From a virus (Duplodnaviria > Caudoviricetes), in the IMG/VR virus record IMGVR_UViG_2887198475_000002: a DNA stretch of 64,000 nucleotides. One strand, written 5' to 3'. Under the pieces are notes generated by a model. That model saw only the letters and a program-made list of their open reading frames with translations, was not told where the DNA came from and did no database searches. Of this stretch, positions 29,614 to 47,955 are shown piece by piece. Position numbers and translations under genes: made by a program. How positions within the stretch are numbered: the stretch's first letter is position 1; the number at the start of each line of letters is the position of its first letter.

Positions 29614-29798
29614 GTCATATCATGGTTGTACAAAACTGAAAGTGACAGAGAGGACAAGATGCCTATTTCGGCCACGGGTTCACCATTAGGATCCGAGCCA
29701 AAATAAACTTTTTTATGTGCCTGTCAGTATTCTCATGGCGGCAACGTTACTTGCACTCGAAATCCACTGATTTGGATCGTTTGTTCAAACTTGATCCT

Positions 29799-30032: not shown

Positions 30033-30038
30033 GGCCTC

Positions 30039-30503
30039 CTACCCGGCTGTGAGCCGGAATGCGATTGCAAAGCCGATCAGGCACCCGATGACGAACACGC
30101 CCCCGAGCACCGCGGCCACCACAGCGTACGTCCGCCGGTCGAATGCCTTCTTCCAGCCGGAGGACTCCCGTTCGATTGCCGCGCCGACGCGCGCCTCCAT
30201 CGCGGCGATCACCCGCGCCTGGAACGCCTCCATCGCTGCCGGCGGGAGCGGTTGCCGGGCCTCGAACATGATCCGCGCCAGGGCAGGCATCAGCTCCACG
30301 AAGGCCGCCTGGGCGACGAAGATTTCCCGCCAGTAGGGATCGCCCTTCACGCCCGGCGCGCGCGCCGCGGCGACGATCCGTTCGAGCGTCCGATCCACCC
30401 GCCCCTGGAAATCGGCCATCAGCTTCGCTGCGTCAGGCCCGGGCAGAGCAGACGGGGGAGAAGGAGGCGTTGCCTCCTCCTCCCCACGCGCCACAGCATC
30501 CAT
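30039..30503 (-). CDS. Hypothetical with C-terminal TM (third gene of stability-like operon)
   Basis: C-terminal hydrophobic helix; operon context. Confidence 0.55.
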   Translation of the reverse strand: MDAVARGEEEATPPSPPSALPGPDAAKLMADFQGRVDRTLERIVAAARAPGVKGDPYWREIFVAQAAFVELMPALARIMFEARQPLPPAAMEAFQARVIAAMEARVGAAIERESSGWKKAFDRRTYAVVAAVLGGVFVIGCLIGFAIAFRLTAG

Positions 30504-30529
30504 CAGGGCGCGTATTCCCTCCGGGCCGG

Positions 30530-31492
30530 CTACGCCAGCCACGGTAGGAAGCCTTTGCCTTCCAGCGGCGCTAGCTCCTCGTTCACCGCTTCGAGGTAGC
30601 GGCGCACGACGGGCCGGTAGACGCCGGGGATGGGCGGGTTCTTGTTGCCCTCCGGCACGATGCCGTCCCGGGCCTCGTGGAACAGGAACCGGCGGCTCTC
30701 GATCCACAGGGCAAGATCCTGCGGGGCCAGCCGAGGCCACCACAGCTCGACCGCGCCTTCCTCAAGCGCCCGCTGATATGCCGGGGTGCGGCGAATCGTC
30801 TCGAACGATGCCGGGCTATCCGCGCGCCCCAGGTTCAGGATCAGCAGCGAGGCCGGCCATTTGACGCCGAGGCGCTGATGCTCGGCGAGCTGCGCCACGT
30901 CATCGACCGCGGGCGTGAGCACATAGGCCCCGATCAGCGACACCGCGCCCTGGCGGAGCTGATCCGGCAGCGTCGGGCCGCTGGCGATCAGCTCGCCGAA
31001 AGCGATAGCGTCGGCCCCCAGGTCGAAATACCCGCCCAGGAACTTCCCCTTGCCCCGTGCGGAGGGCAGCGCCCCGAACACCTTCCGCTGCCACTCGACC
31101 ACCTGGGCAATGTTCCGGCCCGGGGGCTGCATAACCTGGGCGAAAAATTCGACCAGCAGCCGCGCCCCGGGATCGGAGGCGAGGAGGATGGTCCGGTCCA
31201 GCGACTCCGGGGCCGATTCGAGCTGCTTGCCGCCCAGGGTCCGGGCGATCGTCGTCTTGCCGCTGTCCCCCGAGCCGATGAGCGCCCAGACGGGCGCGGT
31301 GCCCGACAGGTCAGGGATTGGCTTCGTGCGCTGGGTGCGCTTGGGGCCGGCGTCGGTGGGGAGGCTCGCGGTCGCCGGGACCACTACCTCGTCCATCTCC
31401 TCTGCCAGCAGATCGGCCAGCGACTTCCCCTCGTCCTTTTCGGCATCCGGGGGGTTCTCCTTCACCACGTTCAGCTTTGGCGCTTGCGCCAT
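30530..31492 (-). CDS. P-loop ATPase, ParA/StbB-like
   Basis: IGSGDSGKTT, DP and D.GA motifs; near repA. Confidence 0.65.
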   Translation of the reverse strand: MAQAPKLNVVKENPPDAEKDEGKSLADLLAEEMDEVVVPATASLPTDAGPKRTQRTKPIPDLSGTAPVWALIGSGDSGKTTIARTLGGKQLESAPESLDRTILLASDPGARLLVEFFAQVMQPPGRNIAQVVEWQRKVFGALPSARGKGKFLGGYFDLGADAIAFGELIASGPTLPDQLRQGAVSLIGAYVLTPAVDDVAQLAEHQRLGVKWPASLLILNLGRADSPASFETIRRTPAYQRALEEGAVELWWPRLAPQDLALWIESRRFLFHEARDGIVPEGNKNPPIPGVYRPVVRRYLEAVNEELAPLEGKGFLPWLA

Positions 31493-31509
31493 ACCAGTTC
31501 CCTTTCAGA

Positions 31510-32004
31510 TCAGACTTTTCGGCCGCCTGCGAATTGCAGCACGTCCGTTTCGTCCTCCTCCTCCGCGGCGGCGGCCGCGGGAGGAGGAGCAGTTTTCCGC
31601 CGCGTCTTGGCCACCGGTGCCGCGGCGGCGGCAGCCGGCGCCTCTGGCGCTGGCGTCTCTTTTGCGACCGGGCGCGCCCTCGCGGGCGCCCCATCCCCTG
31701 CCAGCCGGGCCTTGTCGCGGCGGACCTGCCACCACGCCTTGCGGACCCGCTCGCCGGTAGGAGGCTTTCCGTCGCCGTCCGCGATCTGCGCCGCGGTTTC
31801 TCCCGGATGCAGCGCGCGCAACGCGGCCGCAACCCCGTCCCAATACGGGCGCCGTGGCGGGTTCAGCCCTGGCGCCAACTCTTCGTAGTGGTCCCACAGA
31901 TGCTCGTAGAGCGGCGAATGGCCTCCCCGCTTCTCGGGAGGCCGCTGACGAGCCGCTTCGAGGATCGCGTCCACTACCAAGGCACCTCTCTTCCGTCCGG
32001 TCAT
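31510..32004 (-). CDS. Plasmid DNA-binding protein (StbA/mobilisation-accessory-like)
   Basis: SPLY..LW..RP.W...DGKPPT...RKAWWQVRRD; upstream of ATPase. Confidence 0.5.
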   Translation of the reverse strand: MTGRKRGALVVDAILEAARQRPPEKRGGHSPLYEHLWDHYEELAPGLNPPRRPYWDGVAAALRALHPGETAAQIADGDGKPPTGERVRKAWWQVRRDKARLAGDGAPARARPVAKETPAPEAPAAAAAAPVAKTRRKTAPPPAAAAAEEEDETDVLQFAGGRKV

Positions 32005-32069
32005 CGTCCCGCCTCTGTCCAGGCATGCGGGGGGACCATGCCGCGATTCGAGAGTCGAATCATCCCCCA

Positions 32070-32165
32070 ATCCGGGCAAACTGTCCAGCATACATCCGGC
32101 TTCTATCCGTAGGTGTATCCGTCAAAAATCCGGTAAGTGTCCGGCCTTTGTCCTGGTCCGTAGGA
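32070..32165. repeat. Cluster of degenerate (T/G)TCCG(G) repeats, possible centromere-like site
   Basis: About eight short CGGA(C/T)A-type repeats upstream of the StbA-like gene. Confidence 0.45.
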
Positions 32166-32238
32166 TGGAATGGTGGTAGTCAGATCGAGGCGCCGTTTCC
32201 AAACGACGCAGCGGGGAACAGCAGAAAAGGAGTTCGAC

Positions 32239-32457
32239 GTGCCGAGGGACGTTCACAAACTCGCCGCCGCCGCAGTCTTGCAGGGCCAGGAATCCGAGGA
32301 TGCCGCGATGCTGGCGCATTGCAGGGAGCAGGCAATGCGCCCGACGCCGGAGGCCGGCAGCTTCGCCACCGCCTTCGCCCTTCTCCGCCTGACGGACATG
32401 GCGCGCCGGCTGATTGTCTCGGATCTGCGCGACGAGGCAGCGGAGGCCGGCCGATGA
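32239..32457 (+). CDS. Hypothetical
   Basis: AAGGAG SD, GTG start, coupled to dut. Confidence 0.55.
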   Translation: MPRDVHKLAAAAVLQGQESEDAAMLAHCREQAMRPTPEAGSFATAFALLRLTDMARRLIVSDLRDEAAEAGR

Positions 32458-32939
32458 GCGAGCCAGCCGCCGAGACGTTCGGCTTCCGCCGCCTGACCAT
32501 GACGGCCACGGTACCGACCCGGGCGCACCCCAAGGATGCCGGGCTCGACCTGTGCGCCGACCTCTACAAGCGCGACGGGGCGGAGAGGGTGGCCGGTGGC
32601 ATCCTGTGCCTGACCGTCCCACCGGGGCAGCGCCGGCGCATCCCGACCGGGCTCGCCATCACCCCGCCGGAGGGGACCTTTGCCCATCTGCTGGACAAGT
32701 CGGGCCTCGCCGATCGCTACGGCATCACCATCCTGGGCGGCGTCTGCGACGAGGGATACACCGGCGAGTATCAGGTGATCGTCCTCAACACCGGGAACGA
32801 GCCCTGGCACGTCATCCACGGTGTGAAGCTGTGCCAGATCGTGTTCCAGCGCATCTCCTACGCGGTCGGCGAGGAGCGGGAGCTGCCGCAGACCGCCCGT
32901 GGCGCCAAGGGGTTCGGCAGCACGGGGGCGATGGGATGA
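32454..32939 (+). CDS. dut: dUTPase (trimeric)
   Basis: AGLDL, KSGLA, GVCDEGYTGE, RGAKGFGSTG motifs. Confidence 0.93.
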   Translation: MSEPAAETFGFRRLTMTATVPTRAHPKDAGLDLCADLYKRDGAERVAGGILCLTVPPGQRRRIPTGLAITPPEGTFAHLLDKSGLADRYGITILGGVCDEGYTGEYQVIVLNTGNEPWHVIHGVKLCQIVFQRISYAVGEERELPQTARGAKGFGSTGAMG

Positions 32940-33039
32940 CGGCAGTCCTCCTGGCGCCTCCGCGTCAGGCCCCACCGCCGGATGAGAAGGGCGTCATTGG
33001 CTGATCTGTGGCGGGGAGAGCGGCCCGAAGGCGCGCCCG

Positions 33040-33180
33040 ATGGATCCGACCTGGGCGTCCCGTTCTTCTTCAAGCAGACCGGATCCCGCCGCGAGGCGTG
33101 GCCGGGCGTGACCGGGAAGGGCGATAACCCGGCCGAGTGGCCGGACGAGCTGCGCGTCCAGCAATTCCCGGGGGCGCCGT
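33040..33180 (+). pseudogene. DUF5131 (Gp37/Gp68) C-terminal remnant
   Basis: GVPFFFKQ..KGDNPAEWPDELRVQQFP without the N-terminal domain. Confidence 0.6.
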
Positions 33181-33367
33181 CGAAAACGCCGGGCCGGGTG
33201 CGGAGCGTGAGCCAAGACGGGGCCGGCCCAGGCGTCGGCCTGAACCGGCAGAGCCGCCGCAAGGGCGGCCCAATCTGGGACTTCTTGTCGCGCCCCTACC
33301 GGTTCGCCGGCTCGGATCGACAGGCCAGCGGGGCTGGGGACTCTGTGGGCGGCTGGCTCGCGGCGCT

Positions 33368-34288
33368 TCAGGAGCCGGGTGCGAGTTGGCGCGGCGCGAC
33401 CGGAGGCCGTGAAGGGTGCAGGATCATCCCGCCGTCCCCTACTTCTATCTTGGCGTCCGGATAAACCGCCAAAGCGAGTTGCACGTTGGCCAGGAACAGC
33501 CGCCGGAAATCAACCATTCGGCCGATGCCAAGCCCGAATTGCGCCTTCAAAGCCTTCCAGCTCACGGGCTGCGGCTTCGATAGGGCGTGGAGCCTGTAAG
33601 CCAGCCACGCATACACATCCAGGCCCTGGCTATTATTCGACAGGGCCTTCACAGCAGCCTCTTCTATCGGAACGGGATGTTTTTGGAGTTGTTGAAAGAA
33701 CCCATCTGACAGTCTGGCATTCTCAGCAAGCAATTTGCCAGATCCGTCCATAGATGGCTCAAACATAGCCGCTTCAATAATGTTCTGATTTAATAGCCCG
33801 ACTTTGCCCCCGCGACGCATATGGAACGTCAGCCGGCAATAGGCGATGCGTTCAGACTGTTCGCGGACCGCCTTCACTACGCCGCCGCCCCACGGAATCC
33901 CCATCCGCTCAAGCCAGTCCCGCATGCTTGAGCCGAGCCGCACTTCCGGGCTCTGCGTGCGGAGTGCTTCTGACTGAAGGTAGAATAAAATCATCCTTGC
34001 GCGCGCGCCGAATGGGACTCCGACATTAACAGGCTTCCCGTTAAGGCCGGGGCGTGCGCCCGATTCGACAATTAGGCTGATGTTTTCAGCGTCTACTTGC
34101 CAATCCTGGCCGTCTGGAAGGCGCTTGTGAGGCAACGCTGCTTGGCACCAGCCCGAGAAAAGAAAGCCGATACCGGTATCTTCATTGCCTAAATACTCGG
34201 TTGCAGCCTCGATTACCTCTCGGCGCACGTCGAGATTTAGCGTGCCTTGCTTGCCCTTGGCGACGAGAAGATCGTGGATGGTTCCCAT
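33368..34288 (-). CDS. repA: Plasmid replication initiator RepA (RepA_C type)
   Basis: CQAALPH, GVPFG..ARMIL, HPVP, LDVYAWLAYRL, QFG; likely start 34288 because the upstream extension overlaps iterons. Confidence 0.88.
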   Translation of the reverse strand: MGTIHDLLVAKGKQGTLNLDVRREVIEAATEYLGNEDTGIGFLFSGWCQAALPHKRLPDGQDWQVDAENISLIVESGARPGLNGKPVNVGVPFGARARMILFYLQSEALRTQSPEVRLGSSMRDWLERMGIPWGGGVVKAVREQSERIAYCRLTFHMRRGGKVGLLNQNIIEAAMFEPSMDGSGKLLAENARLSDGFFQQLQKHPVPIEEAAVKALSNNSQGLDVYAWLAYRLHALSKPQPVSWKALKAQFGLGIGRMVDFRRLFLANVQLALAVYPDAKIEVGDGGMILHPSRPPVAPRQLAPGS

Positions 34289-34322
34289 GCCGCGAGCATG
34301 CCACATCTGCGGCGGCTCGGAA

Positions 34323-34662
34323 GTGGGACTTCTTGTCACACCCCCCTGGCGGGGAGAGTGGCGGGGAGAGGTGTCCACAGGCGGGGGTGGGACTTCTTGT
34401 CACACGAGCTATTAGCAAGATATTTGATTCTTATATTAGCTTGTGTGACAAGAAGTCCCGGGATAACTCATGTAACCCATTGATATCATTTGGGGCGCTC
34501 TGAGGGGGGTGTGACAAGAAGTCCCACTTGCTGTGACAAGAAGTCCCACCCCGCCTGTGGATAAGTTCTCCGCCGGCCGATGCAGCCCCCCCCGCCCGGC
34601 ATGAAGCCGCAGGGCGGGAAATTGGTTCAGTTCCTTGTTGGCCAGTGTGACAAGAAGTCCCA
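34323..34662. promoter_or_regulatory. Iteron origin of replication
   Basis: Six TGTGACAAGAAGTCCC iterons (34323 and 34387 reversed; 34444, 34510, 34532, 34646), DnaA box TGTGGATAA at 34556-34564, AT-rich core; seventh partial iteron at 33276. Confidence 0.9.
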
Positions 34663-34885
34663 GGCCGTGCGATGAACGTCGGCGCCTGGAACATCCAGAG
34701 TTGAGCATCCCCAGCCGTTCAGGCCGGCGCCCACGGAGTCTCCAGTGGCATCGCCAGCCAGCCACGCACCCGCGAGGCGCGAGAGACGGGCCAGGAAGGC
34801 AGGAGCGGATACTGCCACGGCGCCCGTACGCCGGCATAAACCGGGACTCGCCGGACAGGGAGTCGTCCGCGGTGCCGGCGGATAC

Positions 34886-36580
34886 TCAGGCGGCCCTGAC
34901 CCCGGAGATGAAGCTGCCGACCTGACCAGCGAGCCGCTCAGCGCCCCTGGACAGGCTGTCCGCCACTTCCAGCACCTGCTGCGAGGCCTGCCCGGTCTCC
35001 TCGGCCGCGCGGCTGACGCCGCCGATATTGCGGGTCACCTCACCGGTGCCGGTGGCGGCGTGCTGGACGCTGCGGGCGATCTCGGCGGTGGCCGAGCCCT
35101 GCTCCTTCACCGCGACGGCGATTGTGCCGGTGATGCTGTTGACCTGATCGATGGTGCGCACGATGCTGCCGATCGCGCCGACCGCGTCCTGCGTCGCCGC
35201 CTGGATGCGCGCGATCTGCGCGCCGATCTCGCCGGTGGCGCGCGCGGTCTGGCTGGCGAGATTCTTGACCTCGCCCGCCACCACGGCGAAGCCCTTTCCG
35301 GCGTCGCCCGCCCGCGCCGCCTCGATCGTCGCGTTCAGCGCCAGCAGGTTAGTCTGCCCGGCGATGCTGGTGATCAGCCCGACCACGTCGCCGATCTTCT
35401 GCGCCGCTTCCGCCAGTGCCCGCACGGTCGCGTTAGTGCGCTGCGCCTCCTCCACCGCCTGATGGGCGACGGTGGTGGATTGTTCGACCTGCCGGGTGAT
35501 CTCGCCGATCGAGGCGGAGAGTTCCTCGGTGGCCGAGGCGACGGTCTGGACGCTGCTGGAGGCGTCCTGCGCGGCGGTGGCAACGGCGCTCGCCTGGGTG
35601 CTAGTCTGGTCTGCCGTGCGGGTCATTTGCCCCGCGGTCGCGGTCATCTGGGTGGCGGAGGAGGCAAGGTGCTGCACCAGCTCGGCCACCTGCCGCTCGA
35701 AGTCCTGCACCAGCGCGTCGACCTGCGCCGCACGCCGCTCCTGTGCCGCCCGCGCCGTAGCCTGCTCGGCGGTGAGGCGGTCGGCGGTGAGCATATTGTC
35801 CTTGAACACCTGCAGGGCGGCCGCCATCGCTCCGATCTCGTCGCCGCGCCCGGTGCCGACGATCTCGGTGGTCAGGTCGTGCCCGGCGAGCCGGCGCATC
35901 GCCGCTGTCATGGTCAGGATCGGGGTGGAAATGCCGCGCACCATCAGCCAGCCATTGAGCAGGCAAAGCCCGCTCATTAGGCCGAGCACGACGAAGATCC
36001 AGGTCTGCGCTGATTCGCCAAGGGCGGCGCCGCGCTCGCCGCTGATGCGGGCCTGCTCGGAGTTGTACTCGATCAGGGCATCCAGGCGTGCCTGCAGGTC
36101 ATTGTTGAACCTCTCGCGCATCTCGCTGCGGTAGAAGCTCGTCGCCTGCACGTGCTCGTTCGCCTGGACAAGGGCTTGGAACCGGTCGTTCAGGGCAAAA
36201 TACGCAGTGACCGCCTGGGTGAACATCTCCCCCATCTGCTGCTCCCGGCCCGGATTCATCAGAGGGCGGTATGCCAGCAGAGCCTGCTCGATCTGCTCGC
36301 GCAAGTCGCGCAGTATTCTGGCGTCCTCCGCCTTGGCCGCACCCTCTGGGGCGAGGAGATAGGCCGCCTGGAATGCCCGGAAGCGTGTCACGAGATAATC
36401 GAGGCGACCGAGCGCCTGGATGCTGGGAAGCTGGTCGTCGCGCATCTCGGCCGCCGCGACATTGACCGCCGCCAGCCGTTGCACCGCGAACAAGCCGAGG
36501 CCGATCGTGCAGGCGAGGACGATCGCGAAAGCCGTGACGACTTTGGATCGGATGCTGAGGTGATCGAGAATCTGGTTCAT
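34886..36580 (-). CDS. Methyl-accepting chemotaxis protein
   Basis: TM-4HB-TM-HAMP; IAGQTNLLALNATIEAARAGDAGKGFAVVA. Confidence 0.95.
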   Translation of the reverse strand: MNQILDHLSIRSKVVTAFAIVLACTIGLGLFAVQRLAAVNVAAAEMRDDQLPSIQALGRLDYLVTRFRAFQAAYLLAPEGAAKAEDARILRDLREQIEQALLAYRPLMNPGREQQMGEMFTQAVTAYFALNDRFQALVQANEHVQATSFYRSEMRERFNNDLQARLDALIEYNSEQARISGERGAALGESAQTWIFVVLGLMSGLCLLNGWLMVRGISTPILTMTAAMRRLAGHDLTTEIVGTGRGDEIGAMAAALQVFKDNMLTADRLTAEQATARAAQERRAAQVDALVQDFERQVAELVQHLASSATQMTATAGQMTRTADQTSTQASAVATAAQDASSSVQTVASATEELSASIGEITRQVEQSTTVAHQAVEEAQRTNATVRALAEAAQKIGDVVGLITSIAGQTNLLALNATIEAARAGDAGKGFAVVAGEVKNLASQTARATGEIGAQIARIQAATQDAVGAIGSIVRTIDQVNSITGTIAVAVKEQGSATAEIARSVQHAATGTGEVTRNIGGVSRAAEETGQASQQVLEVADSLSRGAERLAGQVGSFISGVRAA

Positions 36581-36725
36581 CGTGATGTGGCGCCGCTAGG
36601 GGGGATTGCACGGGGAGAGGATCTGGACAGCATGTCCGGATGCGAGTGATGACAGAATTCCCGCATAGATAGATATACTCTGAATGTTATACAACTTTTA
36701 ATGATACAAAATTGCTTTTATATAT

Positions 36726-36887
36726 GGCTCTTATCGGGTTTCGGGGTGATGGGTCGCCGATAGCCGTCAGCCTTGCTGCTCCGCCATGGGTACGCTCGCC
36801 AAGTTACTGATTTATTAAGGCAATTCGAGCCAAGATAAGCAGTCGCATTCCGACTCTGGCTCACCACCCCGGAACCCGATAAGAGCC
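36726..36887. mobile_element. 162-bp MITE
   Basis: TIR GGCTCTTATCGGGTT(T/C)CGGGGTG; 8-bp TSD TTATATAT on both sides. Confidence 0.85.
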
Positions 36888-37206
36888 TTATATATTTCAG
36901 ATCTTATTTTTACCTGATTACATCCTTTCCTCAGCTGGCTTCTGAGCTTGATAAAGGTGCTGGGAATTTGGGATTCCGTGACGAAGGCGGTCAGGCGGCC
37001 ATCGTTGATGGGCGTCGCTCCCTAGTCAGACGCTCTACGTCCTGGCAGCCGCACAGAAGCCCGCTGACGGCTTTTCTCCGGTCTGACGCGCTCCTCCGAT
37101 CGACTTCCCAGCCTTCCAACCTCTGCTTCGTTCCCGATCCGCGCCACGAAGCGTGCTTTTCTGCCCGTTCTATGGCGGCACCGAGATCTGGCCTGATAAC
37201 CTGCCC

Positions 37207-38112
37207 CTATGGCGTCACCCCGGTTCGGCGATCTCGTCGTAGCCCCAGCCGAGGAACTGGATTAGGCAGAAGCGTGGCCGAACGGATTGGCGAGCATTCT
37301 GCCCCACGCGGCGGTCCGGACAGCGGTCTCGACGCGGGCGCCGGCGGTAGGCACGCGGGCACAGGCCAGGAGATCGCCTCGGACGCGACGACGGCCTCGA
37401 AGGCCGGGTGCGCGAAGAAGAAGCCCTGCATGTAACGCACACCCGCCTCCCGCAGCGCCTCGACCTCGCCAATCCGCTCGACACCCTCGACAACGAGCTT
37501 GACCCCGAGTTGGCTGGTGAGCGTGACGAGGCTGGCGACGATGCCGAACCGCGTGCGGTCCTGGTCGCAATCCACGATGAGCTGACGGTCGAGCTTGATG
37601 ATGTCGGGCTTCAGCTCGACGAGGCGGGCGAGACCGGAATACCCGGTCCCGAAATCGTCGAGTGCGACCTTGAAGCCGTGGCGGTGGTACTCTTCGAGGA
37701 TGGCGCGCGTGTGCGCAGCATCGGCGATGCTCTCGTTTTCCGTAAACTCGAAAGTCAGGCGTCCGAGCGAGAAGCCGTTCGCGGCGGCGGCGGCGAGGGT
37801 GCGGCGGATGCAGGCGCGCGGCTCGTAGACGGCGTTGGGCAAGAAGTTGATGTTGAGCCGACCATCAAGGCCGAGCCGGGCCGCCATCTCGATCGCCTTG
37901 ACGCGGCAGGCTTGATCGAAGGCATAGCGGTTCCCGTCGTCGATTTGCGCCAGGATCGATCCCGCGCTCTCGCCGGAGGGGCCGCGCACCAGAGCCTCGT
38001 GCCCATCGATGCGCATCTCTGCAAGATCGACGATGGGCTGGAAAGCCATTGTGAAGGGGAACAGCAGCACCTCGTCGCGACACCGCCCACAGTCCCACCG
38101 TTCGTCCGTCAT
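37207..38112 (-). CDS. EAL-domain c-di-GMP phosphodiesterase
   Basis: FQPI..HEALVR, NF.P, EFTE, DDFGTGYS, KLDR, EGVE, QG. Confidence 0.92.
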   Translation of the reverse strand: MTDERWDCGRCRDEVLLFPFTMAFQPIVDLAEMRIDGHEALVRGPSGESAGSILAQIDDGNRYAFDQACRVKAIEMAARLGLDGRLNINFLPNAVYEPRACIRRTLAAAAANGFSLGRLTFEFTENESIADAAHTRAILEEYHRHGFKVALDDFGTGYSGLARLVELKPDIIKLDRQLIVDCDQDRTRFGIVASLVTLTSQLGVKLVVEGVERIGEVEALREAGVRYMQGFFFAHPAFEAVVASEAISWPVPACLPPAPASRPLSGPPRGAECSPIRSATLLPNPVPRLGLRRDRRTGVTP

Positions 38113-38931
38113 GGTCGGCCTCGTTTACAACCTAAGATAGAATCGATTGCCTGCATAACACGTGCAAGTGCCCGCCTCGAAGCCTTTTCAATGGCGAGGG
38201 GGCGCGCCATAGAGCGGGCAGGATTGCACGGTTCACAGCCTGCACCTGGAATCGACGGATTGGTTGCGCCCCTGTCAGACGCGATAACACCGCGATCCCG
38301 CGGCCGTGCGGTAAGGGGTGGCGATTTATTTACATATGCTATTATATACGTATAATAACTTACATCTGGAAATTGGAGATTATTCGAAATGAACGCCGCC
38401 CGTGCCGTAAATAACACTCCAGACAGTGCTTACGATCTCGCCAGCACGTGCCCAAATGCTGAATACAAATATATCTCTGGAATGGAGGCAGAGTATAGTA
38501 TTACTGGCTTTGACCCTTGTGGATTAGTCGATCAATACGGGCTTGGTGCATGGAGATATTACGTTCATTGTCGTGTTTTTAAGAAAATTTATCGGAGCAT
38601 ACATGCTGACCGCCGAAAATCGGTTGCAGCTATGCTGATGTGGCTAAATAGCGTCAAATGCCCAGGCCATCTGCCGATCCTGCCTCCATGATCCCCTGAG
38701 GCTGCGGCCGAGGCAGACAACACTGCCCCCGGATCGCGCCGCAGCCAAGGTGGACCGCACCCGGCCCACACCTTGGGCGGAAGCTTCAAGCTCATCGGAT
38801 TGATCGAAAGCACGGCAATAGACACGGGGGTTTGTCGTCATCTCGCGTATCTCTTGATAGAAATCCCTTTATTAGCGTGCTCATGATTTGCAGATCAGGG
38901 AAGAAAAATAACAAAATATAAGTAGTACACG

Positions 38932-39126
38932 ATGCACTCAGCCGCAAGTATGTCGAACCCTTCCTTTTTGTCTCAGGAAGCCGACCGTTTTCGGTCCCTT
39001 GCTAATGGTGCCAGGGACGCAGGGACTCGAAATTTGCTGCTTAAATTGGCTCAAGACTACGAAGACACGGCGCGGGAATGCCCGTCTTGCCCAACCTGGG
39101 CGGGCGGCTGCGAGCCGGGCTACTAA
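38932..39126 (+). CDS. Small hypothetical
   Basis: ADRFRSLA..LL.LA.DYE..A, a pattern seen in small alphaproteobacterial proteins. Confidence 0.4.
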   Translation: MHSAASMSNPSFLSQEADRFRSLANGARDAGTRNLLLKLAQDYEDTARECPSCPTWAGGCEPGY

Positions 39127-39241
39127 ACCATCCCCGCGCGCTCGCCTGTCTCACGCAGTTGACTCGATAGCTACCGGTGACGCTAGCCTTGTGACATCTT
39201 TTTACACGTATGTTCAACTTGCGCCTGCCATGCTGCCAAGC

Positions 39242-39466
39242 ATGTTCATGGGAGCCGAAGCCGAAGCTGCCGCCATCCGGGAAGCCTTTGAGCAGTCCGG
39301 CGAGTTGGCCGCCGCCGTTGAGATCCAGCGGCTGTTCCCCGATATTTCCGACATGGAGATCGCGCTGTGCTGCGCCCGCGCCATCGCGATCTGGTCGCTC
39401 CGGGCACTTCCGCCATCCGCGAAAGCAACCCGGGCGCGACGTGGAAAGGATCGATCCGGCAAATAA
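39242..39466 (+). CDS. Small hypothetical
   Basis: EAEAAAIR..GELAAAVE..LFP. Confidence 0.45.
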   Translation: MFMGAEAEAAAIREAFEQSGELAAAVEIQRLFPDISDMEIALCCARAIAIWSLRALPPSAKATRARRGKDRSGK

Positions 39467-39599
39467 TTGCCCGCGGTCCCGGAACGAGGCCTGCGACCAA
39501 GCGTAGGAGCGGAGCTGTCCGGAGTCCCTTCGCAGGACGGACGTCAGGGTTCCGGCAGCGCGGCCGGCGCGGTTCGCACCCTCGCCCGCGCCGGCCGCC

Positions 39600-39760
39600 T
39601 ACTCGGCGACGTCCAGCGTGACCAGCGACGCCAGTGCCCGCTGCACTGGTGGCATGCCAGCCGCTCCCTGCCGCTCAAGGCGACGGCGATGTCAGCGAGC
39701 GAGGTGGTGTCGGATCCCTGGATCCCCGCGATCACGCCGATGGGGCAGAGCTGGGTGGCC
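39600..39760 (-). pseudogene. Decayed serine-recombinase C-terminal fragment (copy 1)
   Basis: VIAGIQGSDTTSLADIA; direct repeat of 40735-40805. Confidence 0.5.
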
Positions 39761-39847
39761 ACCGTCGTTTCCCTGGCACCGCCGGACCCGCTGACGGCGC
39801 TGGAGGACCAGGCTGCCAGCCTGGGCACCGGCACGCGGGGCGACCTG

Positions 39848-39891
39848 TTTGTCCGGAATAACCCGGACATTTGTCCGGAATAACCCGGACA
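39848..39891. repeat. Perfect 22-bp tandem duplication of a palindromic unit
   Basis: TTTGTCCGGAATAACCCGGACA x2. Confidence 0.9.
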
Positions 39892-40024
39892 GAATTACAG
39901 AAAATAACGATTAACAATGTTAAAGAATCTGTTAAAGATTCTTCCTACATTTGTACATTATCAACCTTAAATCCATAAGTATCGACATAGGAAATTAACC
40001 AAAAATAGAATACTGGAGTCGGAA

Positions 40025-40612
40025 ATGCTTGATACAGCGACTGCGCTGATCATCGAACCCAACCCAGCCGTCGCATCTGCGCTCTGCACTGCTCTGAAAT
40101 ATGCTGGTATCCGCGAAATCATTGAAGCGCATGACATTGCCTCCGGCTTTGCCGGCCTGGAGCGCGTGCCCCGCGTCGATTGCGCTGTCATCGATCTCAG
40201 CTTTCCGCGCGAGCATGCCCTCGGCATGGCGCAGCGCGCCGCCGACCTGTCCATTCCGGCCGTGTTCACGACTGCCGATTACCGCAAGGTGGAGTGGTTT
40301 GCATTCGGGGACTCGCTGCCACTCTGCAAGCCGTTCCTCATTCGTGAATTGCTCGAATGCCTTGAGCTCGAGATTGAGCGGTCCAGGCGCCTGCAATTGG
40401 AAGCGGCGGCCAATCGGGAGCATTCCGAACGCGTTCGGTTGGATGCTGCTGCCGAGCGGGAGCGTGCCATCCGCCTTCGCCTGCTGAGCGCAGCCACCAG
40501 AGAACGCTACCAACGCATCCGAGAGGCTAGGGCTGAGAGACAACGGCACGAACATGAAGAGGAATTGCGCCGCCTAGGCATAACGCTTCCTCGCTCATTC
40601 CGCTCCTCCTGA
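40025..40612 (+). CDS. Receiver-domain-like protein with coiled-coil tail
   Basis: ALIIE, DCAVID, VFTTA, KPF. Confidence 0.7.
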   Translation: MLDTATALIIEPNPAVASALCTALKYAGIREIIEAHDIASGFAGLERVPRVDCAVIDLSFPREHALGMAQRAADLSIPAVFTTADYRKVEWFAFGDSLPLCKPFLIRELLECLELEIERSRRLQLEAAANREHSERVRLDAAAERERAIRLRLLSAATRERYQRIREARAERQRHEHEEELRRLGITLPRSFRSS

Positions 40613-40640
40613 CGAAAGCGCTGGCAGAATCCGGCGCCGG

Positions 40641-40805
40641 TCACCCGACCAGCCGCGCCAGGATCCGCTGCACCGTTGCCGCGTGCCACCCACCCCGGCC
40701 GCTTGGCGTCGGGATCGACCGGGCCGCCAGCTCGGCGGCAATGTCGAACAGCAAGGTGGTGTTGGATCCCTGGATTTCCGCGATCACGGCGATGGGCAGA
40801 GCTGG
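40641..40805 (-). pseudogene. Serine-recombinase C-terminal DNA-binding fragment (copy 2)
   Basis: IAAELAARSIPTPSGRGGWHAATVQRILAR. Confidence 0.6.
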
Positions 40806-41034
40806 GGTAAGTTGAACATACGTGTAAAAAGTGGTCACTAGGACACGGTCATCATATTTATCAATAGGTTGTGCAGCCAGCGCTAGGGTCGTCTGAGCTG
40901 ATTAGACGCGATAACTGTTCTTATCGCGTAATAGGACTCCCGGCCACAATCGCCGGCAAGTTGCCGAAATCACGACAGAAAGCCCGGGCCTGGATAGGAC
41001 GGTCGAGCGCGATTCCAGGCGATGCTGCTGCCGG

Positions 41035-41454
41035 TCATGCCGGGAACGCCTGCACTTCGAGGCGCCTTCCCAGCGCCCGCAGCGCGGTTTCCACGCTGCC
41101 GATGTGGCTGCGGTGCAGTGGGTCGCGCAGCCGTCGCACGGCCCTTTCGTCCAGGCCGATCTGGTGCCCCAGCTCGACGTTGGAGATGCCGGCGGCGAGC
41201 ATCGCGCCGTGCAGCGCCAGCTTGGCAGCGACCAAGGACGGCACACCGACGACAGGACGCCCCTTGGCAGCAGGCGGGGCGGGGATCGGCTTGCCCGCCT
41301 CAACGAACGTGCTCAACGCCGTGACCAGCAAGTCTTCCGCCCGGGTCAGGGCCTCGCCCTCAGTCGCGCCCCAGGTCGAGCCCGGCAGGCGATCGAACGA
41401 GACGGCAATGCTGCCGTCATCGGATTCCAGTGTCGCTGGATAGGCGAAGCGCAT
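41035..41454 (-). CDS. hicB: HicB-family antitoxin
   Basis: YPA.L..DDG...VSF..LPG..T.G.T..EAL..A; C-terminal HTH. Confidence 0.85.
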   Translation of the reverse strand: MRFAYPATLESDDGSIAVSFDRLPGSTWGATEGEALTRAEDLLVTALSTFVEAGKPIPAPPAAKGRPVVGVPSLVAAKLALHGAMLAAGISNVELGHQIGLDERAVRRLRDPLHRSHIGSVETALRALGRRLEVQAFPA

Positions 41455-41768
41455 CGGCCCGTCCTCCGGATCAGCTTTGCCGGCTCAGTATCGGACAAAT
41501 TTGTCCGAACGCTCAACTCCCGCCACCATGCCCCATCCGCATCGGCTCGAACGGCGCCGCCTCGCCCGCGCTGGCGCAGCTCGACGGCGACGTGTCGTTC
41601 CCTTCGGGCGAGGAGGCGCGACGACATAGGCCGTGCGGCCGTTCTGGAAGGCGCAGAGGCCGGTATCGGGCGCGGAACGCGGAAACCGGGCACGGGCGCT
41701 TCCTGGGGCCTTCCTGGGCCGCCAGGACGGCCGCCGTGGCAGCGAAGGCCGCGGCCTCTGCCCCATCG

Positions 41769-41972
41769 TCATCGAGCCGTGAAGTTCAGCTCGCACGCGC
41801 GCGCGTCCCACCTCCTCTCCCTTCTTTCTTTCTTCCCTTCTTTTCTTCTTTTGTAGTTGGTCCCTCTTCGGTCCCTCTTCGGTCCTTCTTCGGTCCTGGC
41901 TTCGGTTCCGCTTTGGTCCTGCGTTGCTTCTGATTTGCCTACAAAGCATTGGAATGCATAGCAATTTGCCAT
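41769..41972 (-). pseudogene. Remnant of a phage replication-initiator linker with 11-bp repeats
   Basis: NCY..Q..GT..RD..GTN.K..KEGKK pattern; TCTTCGGTCC(C/T) tandem at 41859-41920. Confidence 0.45.
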
Positions 41973-42080
41973 GCGCGCTATGGTCCTGGCGTGGCGCGAG
42001 CAATGGTCCGAAATTGCCTCGATGGCACCGCCATCGACAGCGTGACGAATCGCGATGAATCGGGCGTCCGATCCGGCGTC

Positions 42081-43314
42081 GTCATGAACTCGGGCCTGAA
42101 GGCCCGAGCTTGTAGGTGCCCAAGATGAGGCTACGCGGCCCTACGTTCGGCAGCATGACGGCTGCCCCGCCGCGAGATGTTCACGGCGGCTGTGGTGTCG
42201 GCGGGGCCAGCGTGCCCGCATTGGATGCACCGGAAGGTGTCGCGATCTGGGCGGTTGCGCTTGTCTATCATCCCGCAGCACGGGCACTCACGGCTCGTGT
42301 TGCGCGGATCTACGCAGACAAGTGGCACGCCTTCCATCGCGGCCTTGTAGGTCAGGAAGGCCCGGAGTTGGTGGAAGCTCCAACTGTGGTGCGCGCGGCG
42401 CTGGGACCGTCTGACCGTTGTCCGCGCGCGGATGCCCTTGAGGTCTTCCAGGGCAATGCCGCGTCCGGTGTCTTTGGCCTTCCGCACGATGGCTTTGCTG
42501 ATCCGGTGGTTCACGTCGCGGGCAAACCGCGACTCCTTGGCCCGGCGCCGCTTCAGCAGGCGCTTGGCCGACTTGGTTCCCTTCTTCTGAAGCTTGCGGC
42601 GGAGGCGTGCATGTCGGTTGCGCAGATTGGCGATGTGCGCGCCGCTGAACGTCTCCCCATCGTTGTCGGCGGCGATGTTCTTCCGGCCGAGATCGACGCC
42701 GAGGTATTCGGTCGGGTCGCCCGGCGGCACATCGCCAACGTCGATGGTCACATAGAGGAAGAACTGCCCGTCGCGGTAGATCAGGTCTGCCTGCCCGCGC
42801 ACTCGATCAAGCCGGGCGTGCTGGTAGGCGCCGGCCACCCACGGCATGATCTCGCGCCCATCCACCGTCAGGACCGAAACCCGGTCCGATCCTTTCCACG
42901 ACAGGATGCGCTCGTCATAGACAATGGCGCCGTGCGGCCGGAACGACGGTTGGATGGATTTGTCTCGCTTGTAGACCTCGACCACCTTGGCGATGGCGCG
43001 AACGGTCATCTGCGCGGACAGACCAAAGTCAGCGCGGATACCGTGGTAGGCGATCTTCTGAAGCTCAACCTTGTTGGCACATTTGTTGCTGAAGGCAATG
43101 GCAGCAAGCGTGTCGCAGGCAGCATTGAACTGCTCCATCGTCTTCAACAGAGACGCCGCCTGTTCGGCGGTAGGCAACAGCTTCACCTGCATCGTCAGCT
43201 TCATAAAAATCTATATAGGAATCGCTCAATGCAAAGTCAACACCGCATAGCCGACTTCGCCGGCTGCGCTATCCCTCCGCCGGCTAAAGCCGGCGGCATC
43301 TCGCGCAAGCCATG
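42081..43314 (-). mobile_element. tnpA-less IS200/IS605-family element
   Basis: LE hairpin CCGCCGGCTTTAGCCGGCGG with guide GATG predicting cleavage site TCAC (43318-43315); RE hairpin CTCGGGCCTTCAGGCCCGAG with guide CAAG and end TGAC at 42081. Confidence 0.85.
42131..43204 (-). CDS. tnpB: RNA-guided endonuclease TnpB
   Basis: GVDLG, IALEDL, TSRECPCCG..CIQCG..ADTTAAVNI; RuvC D-E-D intact. Confidence 0.95.
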   Translation of the reverse strand: MKLTMQVKLLPTAEQAASLLKTMEQFNAACDTLAAIAFSNKCANKVELQKIAYHGIRADFGLSAQMTVRAIAKVVEVYKRDKSIQPSFRPHGAIVYDERILSWKGSDRVSVLTVDGREIMPWVAGAYQHARLDRVRGQADLIYRDGQFFLYVTIDVGDVPPGDPTEYLGVDLGRKNIAADNDGETFSGAHIANLRNRHARLRRKLQKKGTKSAKRLLKRRRAKESRFARDVNHRISKAIVRKAKDTGRGIALEDLKGIRARTTVRRSQRRAHHSWSFHQLRAFLTYKAAMEGVPLVCVDPRNTSRECPCCGMIDKRNRPDRDTFRCIQCGHAGPADTTAAVNISRRGSRHAAERRAA

Positions 43315-43359
43315 GTGAGAATCAGGCCCGGCCCGGCGTCGTGACGCCAGCATGGGGGC

Positions 43360-46300
43360 ATGACCGCACGAGCCCCAATTGTCCTTTTTTTGAAGGCGTT
43401 ACAGCCCGGCGAACGCTGGATAACGGTCCACAGCCACGGGCCGGACGCGCCCGGCCAGCCCGTGCTGATCCGGCAGGAGAGCGACGGCTCCGCAAGGGTG
43501 GTTGGGGGCGCCGGCGGGGCGTTGAACCATCTGCGCCTGACCGCTGTGCGCGACGAGGCCGAATACAAGCAGGAGGCGGCAAAGCGCGCGGAGCTGCACC
43601 GCGACGCCAGGAAGCGGCAGCAGGAGCGCGATCGGCGAGACGGCCTCGCTGACAGCAAGAAGCGGGCGCGGGAGGTATTGCAGGCCAGCCTGGGCGACCA
43701 CCGGGCGAAATTCGTGGAGACGGTCGCGCAGGCCATGGGCTGGGACACCCGGTTCCCGGCCGAGAAATACCAGAACCTCAGCGACGCGGCCCTGCGGCGG
43801 GCGCAGCAGCGGCACGCCAACGGCCTGATGAAGCGGGCGCGCGAAGCTGTGGACATGCAGCAGCAGCGCCTTGTCGCCGACGCCGAGGCGCGGGGCGCTG
43901 CGGGCCTGGGCGAAGTCAAGCTCACCAGCTCGAAGCCGGACGAGATCACGGCGGAGGACTTGGCGCCGGTGGCGCCGCCGAACGGCCGGGGCCTGGGCTT
44001 CGACCCGGAATACGGCAAGCGCGCCGCCGCGGCGGGCCTGACCGCGGAGGAAAAGCGGCAGGAGGCCGAGGCCACCAAGCCGCAGGATCCGGAGCGGCAG
44101 GCGGCCGCGGCAGAGCGCAAGGTGACGGCGCAGAAGATCGCCGGCGAGCTGGCGACGGTCCGCGATCCGCTTCCCCAGGTGGACCCGAAGCGCGTCGTGG
44201 ACGATCGCGCCGCCCTCGCCATGGTCAAGGCGCGGAAGGCGTTGCAGCAGGCCGAGCGCGCCGCCCGGGACGCGAACAAGCAGATCGACGTCGCCCGCAC
44301 CACGGTCGAGCCGCGGGCCTTCGTCATCGAGACGCGGCAGGCGAGCGATGACGAGGCCCTGAAAGACCTCGAAAACGACCTGAAGACGGTCCGGACCCGG
44401 GCTTTCGTGTCGGAAGTCGGGAAGATGATCGGGGAGCGGGAGAGCGTCGGCGGGCACATTGCCGCCGGCGCCTTCAACAGCATCAACGCCCTGGCGCTCG
44501 CCGCCGGCGGTTCGGCCCTCCTCGATCGGTCAACGGTGGATGTGCTGGGCACGGACGGCGCCGCGCGCGTCCTGGCCCGGCGGCTGCAAGCCGACCTCTC
44601 CCCGCAGGAGATGGACGAGCTGCGGGGGGCAATGGAGCGGTACCACATCGACCACTACATGCGGGTGCAGGCGACCGATGGGGCGCTGCGGGACGCGCGG
44701 ACGTGGCACGAGATGGCCCAGGAGATCGAGCTGGGCGCCGCGAGCACCGGGCATGACCTGATGGCCGCCCAGGAGCTGAACGCCCGCCGGCGGGAATACG
44801 TCGGGAAAGCCCAGCAGGTCTTGGGCGTGGCCCTGGGCGAGATGGAGGCGAACGCCGCGCTGGTGGCGGCCCTGGGCCGGAAGAAGCCGGAGGCCAGCCT
44901 GACGGTCAGCATGGGCAAGCTGGCGCCCGAGCAGGCGATCGCCCAGGCGCGCGCGATCGGGTTGCAGCGGGGCGAGTACCGGATCGAGCGCGTGGGGGCC
45001 TCGACCATGCTGACGGTCGAGGCGGCCGGCATGGATCGGCTGGCGAAGCCGGTCAGCCGGTCCGACCTCGCGCGCACCCGGGGCGCGCTGGACATCATCG
45101 AGGGGCGCAGGGACGAGGATGGATGGTTGCCGGAGGGCGTGGCGAAGCGCCTGGACCTGGGGCGTGACGACATGAAGCCGGGCGTGGCCCCCAGCCTCGC
45201 GCAGCCATTCCCCGACAAGCCGGCGGACGTGCGGCAAGCGGTGCGCGACTACATCGGCGCCAGGGCGGCGGACGGGGACACGCCGGCCGACATCCTCGCC
45301 GGCCTGCTGAACGAGGAGACGATCCAGCGCGCCGGCGACCGTGACGCCTATTTCCGCGCGGTCGAGGAGGTGGCCCCGTCGAAGGATGCCGAGGGCAAGC
45401 AGATCCGGGCCGAGGCCCACGCGGACCGCTTCGCGGAGCTGGCGGACGACTACACCTCGCGGGGGCTGGGCGGGAAGCTGCCGCCCCTGCACCGGCAGAA
45501 GTTCGCCGAGGACGATGCCGCGGCCGATGCGCTGCACCGGGCGCTGGCGGCGCACCCCGAAGGCGTGGCGGCATTCAAGCCGGTGGGGGACCTGACGCCG
45601 CAGGAGCAGGGCATGCTCCGCGGCGTGTTCGCTGCCGAGTTCGCCAAGTCGGCCGGGCCGGAGGCGCAGGCCAAGCAGCAGCGGCTTGCCGAGCTGGGCA
45701 CCAACGAGCCGGAGCGCGAGGTTGAGGACATGTTCGGGCGGGGCGAGAACCCGCTCTGGCGCGAATGGAAGGCCGAGCGCGACGGGCTCGCCGAGGAGCT
45801 GAACCGCGACACCATGACCTGGGGGAAATACCTCGCGGTCATGGGCAGTCCGGCGGCCGGCTATGCCGCCATGCAGGACGTGGTCCGGTCGAAGGTGGTC
45901 GGGCGCTTCGCCGAGGAGCTGAATCGGCTCCGCCCGGCCGAGGCCGTGAAGGTGGGCAAGACCACCATCCGCGGGGACATCGACCACCTGGGCGCCCTCA
46001 ATCCGGAGGAGCGCGAGCGCCGGGAAACCGAGCGGAAGAAGCTCGCCGGCGCCATGCAGGCGCGCGTCGGGGGCAAATTCGCGTCGGACGACGTGAAGGG
46101 GAAGATCCTGCGGGAGCGCGAGGCCCAGGCAGCCATCGCGCAGAGCCAGATGGGCCTGTTCGGGTTCGAGGAGCCGGCGCCGAAGGCGGAGGAGGGCGAG
46201 GCCGGGCCGCTCCTGCCGGAGCTGCGCCAGGGCGAGCGGCTGACGATCGGGCATCAGGCCGAGCAGCAGTTGCAGCGCATGATGGGGCGGATCGGCGCGA

Positions 46301-47955
46301 ACTTCCGCCCCGGCACCGCGCCGGTGAACCTGTGGCGGCCCGACATGAGCGGGAAATTCGTCGGCCGGCAGCGGGCGGTGAAGCTGATCGAGCACTCGAA
46401 AAGAGTGGCTCTTGGACTAGGGGTTGGGTCAGGCAAGACGAGTATCGCGCTATCGGCTTTTACGCACCTCAAGGCGAAGGGGAAGGCCAAGCGGGGCCTG
46501 TTCATCGTCCCCTCGATCGCCCAGGGGCAGTTCCACGGCGAGGCCCTGAACGTGCTTGAGCCGGGGCGCTACCGCTGGCACGCGGAGCCGGGTGCGAGCC
46601 GGGAGGAGCGCATCGCAGCCTACAAAGACCCGAGCATCGACTTCAACGTGGTCACGCACGCCGCCTTCAGGGATGACATGCTGCACCTCGCGGCCGCGCG
46701 CGAAGGCAGCACGCCGGACATCGTTGCCGAGAAGCTGGACGGCATGACGCCGGAGGGGCGTGCCGCCTACATGCGCGACCTGCTGGCCGCCGAGGGCATC
46801 GACCACGACTATCTGGCCGTGGACGAGGGGCACCAGCTCTTGAACCGCGAGGGCAAAGAAAACTCGCGGATGGCAAACGTCATAGACGGTATCTCAGACT
46901 CTCGAAGCTATTACGTAAATCTCACCGCGGATAGCGTGAAGAACGACGCTTCCGAGGCGTTCGACGTGCTCGCGAAGATGGACCGCGCTCGCTACTCAGA
47001 TCGGGATGCCTTCATGCGGCGCTACGGTGCGAACACGCCGGCGGCGCGCGAGGAGCTTCGCCGGGAGCTGGCCCGGCACCTCTACGCCGGGCACATCAAG
47101 CCGGAGGTGCAGGTCCGGAAGCAGGACGTGAAGGTGGCGCTGGGCGAGCGCGACCGGGCGCAGCTCGCCGCGATCGACAAGGCCGCGGCGGCGGCGCGCA
47201 TCGCCCGCATGAAGGGCGAGGTGGATCTGCCCGCGCTCCGGACCCTGGCGCCCGGGGCGTTCGAGGACGTGCCCGAGGCCCAGCACGAGGACGTGGCGCG
47301 GGAGCTGAATCAGTCCATCGGCATCCTGCGCGCCACTGCGGCCCGGCACGCGATCGACGGAAGCGCCAAGGTGGACAAGCTGTCCGAGCTGGCGCGGGAG
47401 CGGGCAGGGAAGCCGGGCGTGGTGTTCGCTCACAGCCTCGCCCGCGTGAAGGAGATCGCGGAACGCCTGACACGCGAGGGGCACCGGGTTGTCACCCTGA
47501 CCGGCACGGACACCAGCAAGGAGAAGGACGCCAAGAAGCAGGCTTTCCAGAGCGGCAAGGCGGACATCATCATCTGTTCGGACGCCGGCGCGGTCGGGGC
47601 GAATCTGCAACGCGGGCAATGGCTGGCGCAGTTCGACACGCCGCAGACAGCGATGGTCCATAACCAGCGGCAGGGCCGGATCAACCGCATCGGCCAGAAG
47701 AACGATATCGAGCTGCTGGACCTGATCGCCGACCATCCGGAGGAGGAGAAGGCCCGCAAGCGGCTGGCGGACAAATACGAGCTGCGGGCGATCATGTCCG
47801 ATCCCCTGGAAGGATTGGACGATCGGGGAATCGCCGGATTTCTAAACCGGGCGCGGGCAGGGAAGCAGGAGGAAGCGGCGCCGCTGTTCGAGGCCACGCC
47901 GGACGAAGAAGCCCCTCCGGCGCCGGAGCCGGAGGAGCAGCACTCGCTGTTTTAG
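43360..47955 (+). CDS. Giant SNF2-like helicase (second), probably virion-packaged
   Basis: GVGSGKT, VDEGH, LTA, GANLQ, QRQGRINRIGQ; late motif 13 nt upstream. Confidence 0.85.
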   Translation: MTARAPIVLFLKALQPGERWITVHSHGPDAPGQPVLIRQESDGSARVVGGAGGALNHLRLTAVRDEAEYKQEAAKRAELHRDARKRQQERDRRDGLADSKKRAREVLQASLGDHRAKFVETVAQAMGWDTRFPAEKYQNLSDAALRRAQQRHANGLMKRAREAVDMQQQRLVADAEARGAAGLGEVKLTSSKPDEITAEDLAPVAPPNGRGLGFDPEYGKRAAAAGLTAEEKRQEAEATKPQDPERQAAAAERKVTAQKIAGELATVRDPLPQVDPKRVVDDRAALAMVKARKALQQAERAARDANKQIDVARTTVEPRAFVIETRQASDDEALKDLENDLKTVRTRAFVSEVGKMIGERESVGGHIAAGAFNSINALALAAGGSALLDRSTVDVLGTDGAARVLARRLQADLSPQEMDELRGAMERYHIDHYMRVQATDGALRDARTWHEMAQEIELGAASTGHDLMAAQELNARRREYVGKAQQVLGVALGEMEANAALVAALGRKKPEASLTVSMGKLAPEQAIAQARAIGLQRGEYRIERVGASTMLTVEAAGMDRLAKPVSRSDLARTRGALDIIEGRRDEDGWLPEGVAKRLDLGRDDMKPGVAPSLAQPFPDKPADVRQAVRDYIGARAADGDTPADILAGLLNEETIQRAGDRDAYFRAVEEVAPSKDAEGKQIRAEAHADRFAELADDYTSRGLGGKLPPLHRQKFAEDDAAADALHRALAAHPEGVAAFKPVGDLTPQEQGMLRGVFAAEFAKSAGPEAQAKQQRLAELGTNEPEREVEDMFGRGENPLWREWKAERDGLAEELNRDTMTWGKYLAVMGSPAAGYAAMQDVVRSKVVGRFAEELNRLRPAEAVKVGKTTIRGDIDHLGALNPEERERRETERKKLAGAMQARVGGKFASDDVKGKILREREAQAAIAQSQMGLFGFEEPAPKAEEGEAGPLLPELRQGERLTIGHQAEQQLQRMMGRIGANFRPGTAPVNLWRPDMSGKFVGRQRAVKLIEHSKRVALGLGVGSGKTSIALSAFTHLKAKGKAKRGLFIVPSIAQGQFHGEALNVLEPGRYRWHAEPGASREERIAAYKDPSIDFNVVTHAAFRDDMLHLAAAREGSTPDIVAEKLDGMTPEGRAAYMRDLLAAEGIDHDYLAVDEGHQLLNREGKENSRMANVIDGISDSRSYYVNLTADSVKNDASEAFDVLAKMDRARYSDRDAFMRRYGANTPAAREELRRELARHLYAGHIKPEVQVRKQDVKVALGERDRAQLAAIDKAAAAARIARMKGEVDLPALRTLAPGAFEDVPEAQHEDVARELNQSIGILRATAARHAIDGSAKVDKLSELARERAGKPGVVFAHSLARVKEIAERLTREGHRVVTLTGTDTSKEKDAKKQAFQSGKADIIICSDAGAVGANLQRGQWLAQFDTPQTAMVHNQRQGRINRIGQKNDIELLDLIADHPEEEKARKRLADKYELRAIMSDPLEGLDDRGIAGFLNRARAGKQEEAAPLFEATPDEEAPPAPEPEEQHSLF

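Follow-up and report, generated by a model that had tools for sequence, protein, structure and literature searches.

In the IS200/IS605 elements ISDra2 and IS608, a tetranucleotide located 5' of a subterminal hairpin reads the tetranucleotide at which the DNA is cleaved, the element inserts 3' of its target, and a guide RNA is derived from the right end (RE) together with the adjoining flank. The peel-and-paste transposition of this family, combined with homing by TnpB, is a mechanism described in 10.1101/2023.11.30.569447. As far as they are described in the same source, the TldR repressors display decayed RuvC sites, an often truncated C-terminus and new gene associations, and some of them use guides of 9-11 nt. 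Concerning TnpB itself, the TAM of AmaTnpB is given as 5'-TCAC (PMC10278001), and wild-type ISDge10 TnpB with a 10-nt guide is reported to engage DNA without double-strand breaks (PMC13507860).

The window analysed here is a stretch of 64,000 nucleotides that corresponds to the minus strand of C6:24038-88037. C6 is a contig of 112,258 bp (66% GC) in a 7.4-Mb genome assembled in 9 contigs, whose host is a GC-rich bacterium. It is phage-like and includes a portal (60486-62255), a Gp80-type fibre (4402-4839) and a lytic transglycosylase domain. Within this window we observe an insertion sequence (IS) that is probably an ordinary selfish homing element of the tnpB-only IS200/IS605 type, landed in one copy of a tandem-duplicated promoter-like region. 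Its features are the following.

42081..43314, minus strand: complete tnpB-only IS200/IS605-type element, with its ends placed where the similarity to relatives stops
43315..43318, minus strand: TCAC (GTGA on the plus strand), target/cleavage motif of the transposase and probable TAM of TnpB, from its position in relatives and from covariation
43205..43314, minus strand: left end (LE), with a subterminal hairpin at 43279-43298 (8-bp stem, 4-nt loop)
43299-43302, element strand: tetranucleotide GATG, directly 5' of the foot of the LE hairpin
42131..43204, minus strand: tnpB coding sequence of 357 aa, with the RuvC residues D171/E253/D336 and the zinc finger C307/C310/C326/C329
42081..42255, minus strand: 3' part of tnpB and RE, putative guide-RNA (omega RNA) scaffold, with the RE hairpin at 42089-42108
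42065..42080, minus strand: flank supplying the putative 16-nt guide GACGCCGGATCGGACG, placed from the RE boundary

The element was delimited by comparison with about 30 related elements originating from genomes, viral contigs and metagenomes, the flanks of which were compared. Its length is 1234 bp, in the range of its relatives (1217-1262 bp). The similarity to the elements L003, L004 and 15 further relatives breaks off exactly at 42081, where the RE terminates in ...TCATGAC (TTCATGAC). In the window and in all relatives with a locatable RE, the hairpin is followed by (T/A/C)TCATGAC and then immediately by divergent sequence, with the variants CATTAC in two elements and GTTGAC in more distant ones. 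On the other side, a script applied to 19 elements detected TCAC in 15, at a distance of 18-19 nt on the 5' side of the LE hairpin. Among the four others, TCAC is visible by eye in L034, the contigs of L037 and L049 end before this point, and the left end of L048 is of another kind. The same tetranucleotide is present at the LE of 8 more distant relatives and of L101, and one subgroup of relatives has TCAT instead; upstream of the TCAC that flanks the LE, the sequences are unrelated from one element to another. An LE boundary at 43340, which would use a second TCAC (43341-43344) and give an empty site with a single motif, was rejected, the similarity to L003, L004 and other elements starting at 43314. 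The earlier note had proposed the ends TCAC|LE (43314) and RE ...TGAC (42081), and the comparison with relatives fixes them at precisely these positions. The element is devoid of terminal inverted repeats, displays subterminal hairpins at both ends and is inserted 3' of a conserved tetranucleotide. There is no classical short target-site duplication, and no empty site was found for comparison; two similar stretches of about 27 nt border the element, one at each end, and we read them, from their sequence, as a tandem repeat that probably existed before the insertion.

The protein contains the Pfam domains OrfB_IS605 (PF01385, 2.8e-08) and Cas12f1-like_TNB (PF07282, 1.8e-20), each past its cut-off, and the best phmmer matches in the PDB are Cas12f and TnpB. 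The multi-alignment of 12 homologues reveals that D171, E253 and D336, together with the cysteines of the CxxC...CxxC zinc finger, are invariant, in agreement with the intact RuvC triad announced beforehand; the three acidic residues also align with the catalytic motifs of a solved Cas12f. The element L101 of Alicyclobacillus macrosporangiidus encodes a protein 69% identical to the window TnpB. Since this element comes from the species of AmaTnpB, the TAM of which is TCAC, the window TnpB would be expected, by analogy, to perform an RNA-guided, TAM-dependent cleavage of DNA. Both the protein and the two ends look like those of an intact mobile element and not of a domesticated repressor. The IS ends leave room for no second ORF, and a profile search of the genome detected no close Y1 transposase, the sole PF01797 match being a chromosomal one at 24.7 bits. 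In the absence of TnpA, the element is thus a tnpB-only, non-autonomous member of its family. We take it to be of the IS1341 type.

The genome contains no other close copy of the window tnpB. A chromosomal paralogue (L027, G000:C1:5032120-5033160) shares 48% identity with it; this element is preceded by TCAT instead of TCAC at its LE and terminates in CATTAC at its RE, and its guide tetranucleotides are changed to match these ends. By eye, the LE of the window element contains a sigma-70-like arrangement TTGACT-17 nt-TATATA, within 43205-43245 on the minus strand, and its relatives have something similar. As the TATATA ends 7 nt before the ATG of tnpB, the mRNA would be nearly leaderless. A scan of 41700-43600 with a stricter sigma-70 pattern flagged no promoter, this site included. 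Contigs of an RNA library cover 41400-43113 at a depth of 143-486, with up to 580 for two 60-nt contigs, and 43176-43929 at 7.5, contig depths that cannot rank expression.

The tetranucleotide 5' of the hairpin foot covaries with the cleavage tetranucleotide across the relatives and the chromosomal paralogue: GAAG (GATG in the window) is associated with TCAC, GAAA with TCAT, CAAG with TGAC at the RE, and AAAG with TTAC at the RE. The IS608-type pairing on which the first reading of this locus was based consequently holds across the TnpB element family. The TAM that had been deduced from it, TCAC, occupies the same position in the relatives, covaries with the LE tetranucleotide and is the TAM given for AmaTnpB (PMC10278001). 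Concerning the scaffold, an alignment of the last 175 nt of 19 elements and its consensus fold display compensatory changes in the RE hairpin and in an upstream stem. The terminal CAUGAC (42081-42086) pairs with an internal GUCAUG, and both elements that end in CAUUAC carry the compensating GUAAUG (a CG-to-AU change). The fold of the single window sequence has a z-score of -2.86; a search in Rfam recovered no match, nothing coming near a gathering score. The similarity between elements stops at 42081, where the scaffold also ends, so the flank encoding the guide would start at 42080 and be read downward, as the earlier note had predicted. A length of 16 nt was assumed for this putative guide from the published TnpB systems.

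The surroundings of the insertion are described by the following features.

42040..42047, plus strand: degenerate third motif-like copy GCGTGACG, read from the sequence only
42048-42057, plus strand: short stub starting with AATC, after GCGTGACG
42058..42080, plus strand: left 23 nt of the promoter-like unit A, the rest of which lies across the IS
43315..43319, plus strand: right 5 nt of unit A (GTGAG)
43320..43346, plus strand: promoter-like unit B, intact, ending in GTCGTGACG (43338-43346) at 13 nt before the helicase ATG
43325..43344, minus strand: near-cognate site, composed of TCAC (43341-43344) and 16 nt of which 12 match the guide, including the first 8
43360..47955, plus strand: gene served by unit B, encoding a 1531-aa protein with a C-terminal SF2 helicase (ResIII/DEAD + Helicase_C)

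When the IS is removed in silico, unit A (28 nt) abuts unit B (27 nt) head to tail. In the pairwise alignment of this reconstructed site, the two units are identical in 23 of 29 aligned columns, a score against B that was reached by 3 of 50,000 random 28-mers of the window. The other 9 copies of the motif have just 4-7 of the 18 upstream bases in common with B; the similarity between A and B is therefore a duplication and not a constraint of the motif. TRF did not report a two-copy 27-nt repeat in the reconstructed site, in a run made with a wrong unit start. The IS splits unit A between GTC and GTGA, leaving unit B and the 13-nt spacing to the helicase untouched. In the reconstructed IS-less site, TCAC is followed by GAC, which reads GTCGTGA on the other strand; this is the core of the motif, as had been stated. 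The exact 34-nt left flank gave no match in the collections of genome contigs and of viral contigs (0 in each), and the IS-less joint was found in none of the contigs of 4 sequencing runs, a result that does not imply the absence of an IS-less form.

The guide, compared with the sequence that follows the neighbouring TCAC (43340 downward), matches at 12 of 16 positions, the mismatches being at positions 9, 10, 14 and 16. The perfect 8-nt seed with 12 of 15 matches reported previously is thereby recovered over the longer guide, and the match is explained by the paralogy of units A and B. The motifs were also said to offer the TAM followed by 3 nt, which is correct: all the other GTCGTGA copies mismatch the guide at position 4. 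In the whole genome, TCAC is followed by the 8-nt seed GACGCCGG at 6 of 46,345 TCAC sites, namely the neighbour and five chromosomal sites that we attribute to chance. Two of these five match the guide at 11 of 16 positions, none has a seed longer than 8 nt, and the neighbour is the best match.

The motif GTCGTGACG is present in 10 copies in the window (starting at 2043, 4897, 9860, 10195, 19305, 43338, 49183, 49378, 62269 and 63874), in agreement with the earlier count, and in 18 copies on C6. This corresponds to 16 per 100 kb, against 0.85 on the chromosome (about 19-fold). All ten window copies fall between genes and have the orientation of the gene that follows, and the genes behind the motif are structural (portal, fibre) as well as of the helicase and methylase types. 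For at least 7 of the 18 C6 copies, the ATG of a long ORF is found 13-17 nt after the motif, at exactly 13 nt in four cases; the motif often stands 13 nt before an ATG without an obvious Shine-Dalgarno sequence. The shorter GTCGTGA has 15 copies in the window for 6.8 expected, a number reached in 1 of 100 shuffles. In related (sister) phages, GTCGTGACG is located 5' of the helicase homologue in L023 (the same locus as L089), L024 and L092, and ATCGTGACG takes its place in L090; the spacing to the helicase ATG is 13 nt in all four distinct loci. On this sequence evidence we regard GTCGTGACG as a real, conserved, phage-specific signal, which could be a promoter with very short leaders or a signal acting at the RNA level. 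Present 13 nt before start codons and kept in sister phages, it would represent an uncharacterised phage expression signal.

The helicases of the sister phages L023 and L024 are 57-58% identical to that of the window, and in both genomes three genes stand side by side or almost so: the one for the giant methylase-helicase, a small one (window 28621-28980) and that of the helicase. Compared with them, the window contains about 14.3 kb, from 28981 to about 43320, inserted between those genes. The corresponding features are listed below.

19331-28624: 3097-aa ORF with N6 DNA methylase and SNF2/helicase parts and a HINT insertion resembling an intein; the motif at 19305 stands before it
28981..42080: accessory island absent from sister phages, defined by synteny, Pfam and composition, with the IS at its right edge
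31854-32939: dUTPase, in the island
33368-34378, minus strand: plasmid RepA_C replication gene, in the island
34886-36580: MCP, in the island
37207-38112: EAL protein, in the island

The GC content of the island is a mosaic with low-GC stretches, and iteron-like repeats are present. The RepA_C gene and the absence of the island content from the sisters suggest a phage that acquired a plasmid replicon. No repeat links the island borders beyond chance matches of 7-8 nt. An iteron-like region at 41796-42038 is composed of repeated GGTCC-containing units and a CT-rich tract, and a copy 78% identical is located outside the window, at C6:9328-9571; this second copy does not extend into the promoter units. 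A 139-aa ORF of the island (41035-41454, minus strand) is matched at the DNA level, with 65-82% identity, in 22 of 300 further genomes from the same family (query positions 845-1278, about 41044-41477 in the window), which makes it a host-type gene of wide distribution rather than one of the phage. A megablast of 41000-45000 against phage and plasmid collections gave no match, and a DNA search of 43315-45000 in 60 relatives gave short matches at chance level only. No relative of the window TnpB is present in the two sister-phage genomes searched whole (L023 and L024), and each of the four distinct helicase loci of the sisters shows one motif, with no IS within 170 nt upstream.

These observations are best accommodated by the following course of events. 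A non-autonomous element would have inserted 3' of TCAC inside the upstream unit A, in front of the helicase gene; since unit B stays intact, the insertion would be tolerated. As in characterised TnpB systems, the RNA derived from the RE would extend by about 16 nt into the left flank to form its guide, and TnpB charged with this RNA would cut the IS-less form of its own site (TCAC + GACGCCGGATCGGACG), which would favour the retention or the homing of the element. The likeness of the guide to the neighbouring promoter would then be a by-product of the A/B paralogy. A chance insertion into a duplicated motif had been kept as a fallback in the earlier note, and it is this explanation that the observations favour.

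The same facts have to be weighed against a regulatory role, in which a nuclease-competent TnpB-guide complex would bind the adjacent helicase promoter through TCAC and the 8-nt seed without cutting, and thereby dampen the helicase. The near-cognate site does overlap the motif itself and is the best overall match of the genome, and binding of the neighbour becomes conceivable from the behaviour reported for ISDge10 TnpB, which with a short guide binds without cutting (PMC13507860), as well as from the 9-11-nt guides described for some TldR repressors (10.1101/2023.11.30.569447). However, the A/B duplication fully accounts for the match, the same TAM and seed occur at five chromosomal sites, the element preserves its RuvC triad, LE, RE and scaffold, in contrast to TldRs, and the sister phages manage with one motif and without the element. 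We consequently judge a dampening of the helicase to be very improbable. The idea of a still-mobile TnpB acting as a cis regulator, which would tune a phage helicase by an 8-base pairing and represent an intermediate toward TldR-type repressors, appears hardly credible; if it were true, the mismatches at guide positions 9, 10, 14 and 16 would prevent the phage from cutting itself. The RNA-guided repression of the helicase promoter evoked in the first reading of the locus is thus not supported, the tandem duplication explaining the match and the seed being found at five other sites.

An insertion directed to promoters, in which this IS lineage would prefer TCAC followed by GAC (the reverse complement of GTCGTGA) and find hot spots in phage promoters, draws on the flanks of the relatives. 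GAC forms the first three bases after the RE in 3 of the 29 other elements (L033, L039 and L045, the first from a viral contig), for about 0.5 expected according to our own rough estimate of about 0.019 per site in a post-hoc test. In these three elements the target, once reconstructed, is GTCGTGA when read on the opposite strand, just like that of the window element. The GAC flanks hint at a weak target preference or at chance, and the insertion site is perhaps not fully random. Yet the number of sites is small, 26 of the 29 elements are without GAC, none of the 12 flanks of related elements that were examined is related to the C6 phage or contains GTCGTGAC, and the motif-bearing sister phages carry no such IS. 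Moreover, 15 of the 314 TCAC sites of the window belong to GTCGTGA, so that chance alone would reach one of them in about 5% of insertions overall and more often among tolerated intergenic sites. A directed insertion therefore seems unlikely to us, and the proposal of an IS exploiting late promoters as targets does not find support: the sister helicase loci have no IS in the 170 nt upstream, the related elements examined stand in unrelated contexts, and the suggested search for related tnpB insertions at motifs in sister phages (two whole genomes and four helicase loci) yielded none. We also doubt a different history, in which a single promoter unit came first and the flanking copies of about 27 nt arose with or after the insertion, for example by restoring a split promoter. 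Similar stretches of 26 nt (42055-42080 and 43315-43340) do border the element directly when the sequence is read in another register, and all sister phages have one motif. Against this, an intact IS stands between copies that differ at 5-6 positions, an uninterrupted unit B could be made from a split unit only with an IS-less template, and the degenerate third copy at 42040-42047 suggests that the array predates the IS; to our knowledge, target duplications are not made by IS200/IS605 elements. An insertion of an ordinary homing element into a pre-existing duplicated unit thus keeps our preference.

The locus is a well-behaved example of a known element, which provides comparison-based ends, TAM and guide for a TnpB lineage with an experimentally characterised relative. 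It also offers, on a promoter-like motif 23 bp away from the IS, a near-cognate, TAM-flanked site as a substrate for determining how much pairing is needed to bind and how much to cut. Finally, a 14-kb plasmid-replicon island sets C6 apart from its relatives, and the IS lies at the border of this island.

When the element is compared with the TldRs, some of which are phage-encoded, the similarity resides in a phage-borne protein of the TnpB family with a guide resembling a promoter next to a TAM. The differences are that the window element has an intact triad, zinc finger and pair of transposon ends and that its guide is the plain flank of the insertion site; neither an inactivated RuvC site or truncated C-terminus, nor a lost transposon context, nor a stable association with one locus in the sister genomes and helicase loci searched is observed. 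With ISDra2 and IS608, the window element shares the subterminal hairpins, the reading of the cleavage tetranucleotide by the tetranucleotide 5' of the hairpin, the insertion 3' of the target and, presumably, the guide RNA formed by the RE and its flank. It differs from them by the lack of tnpA, by the TAM TCAC instead of TTGAT/TTAC and by a shorter protein of 357 aa. The closest likeness is with the AmaTnpB type: L101 has the same layout of LE and RE hairpins, TCAC 5' of its LE and an RE ending in TTCATGAC, although it may not be the copy of AmaTnpB that was assayed, and the window element is hosted by a phage-like replicon of a GC-rich bacterium.
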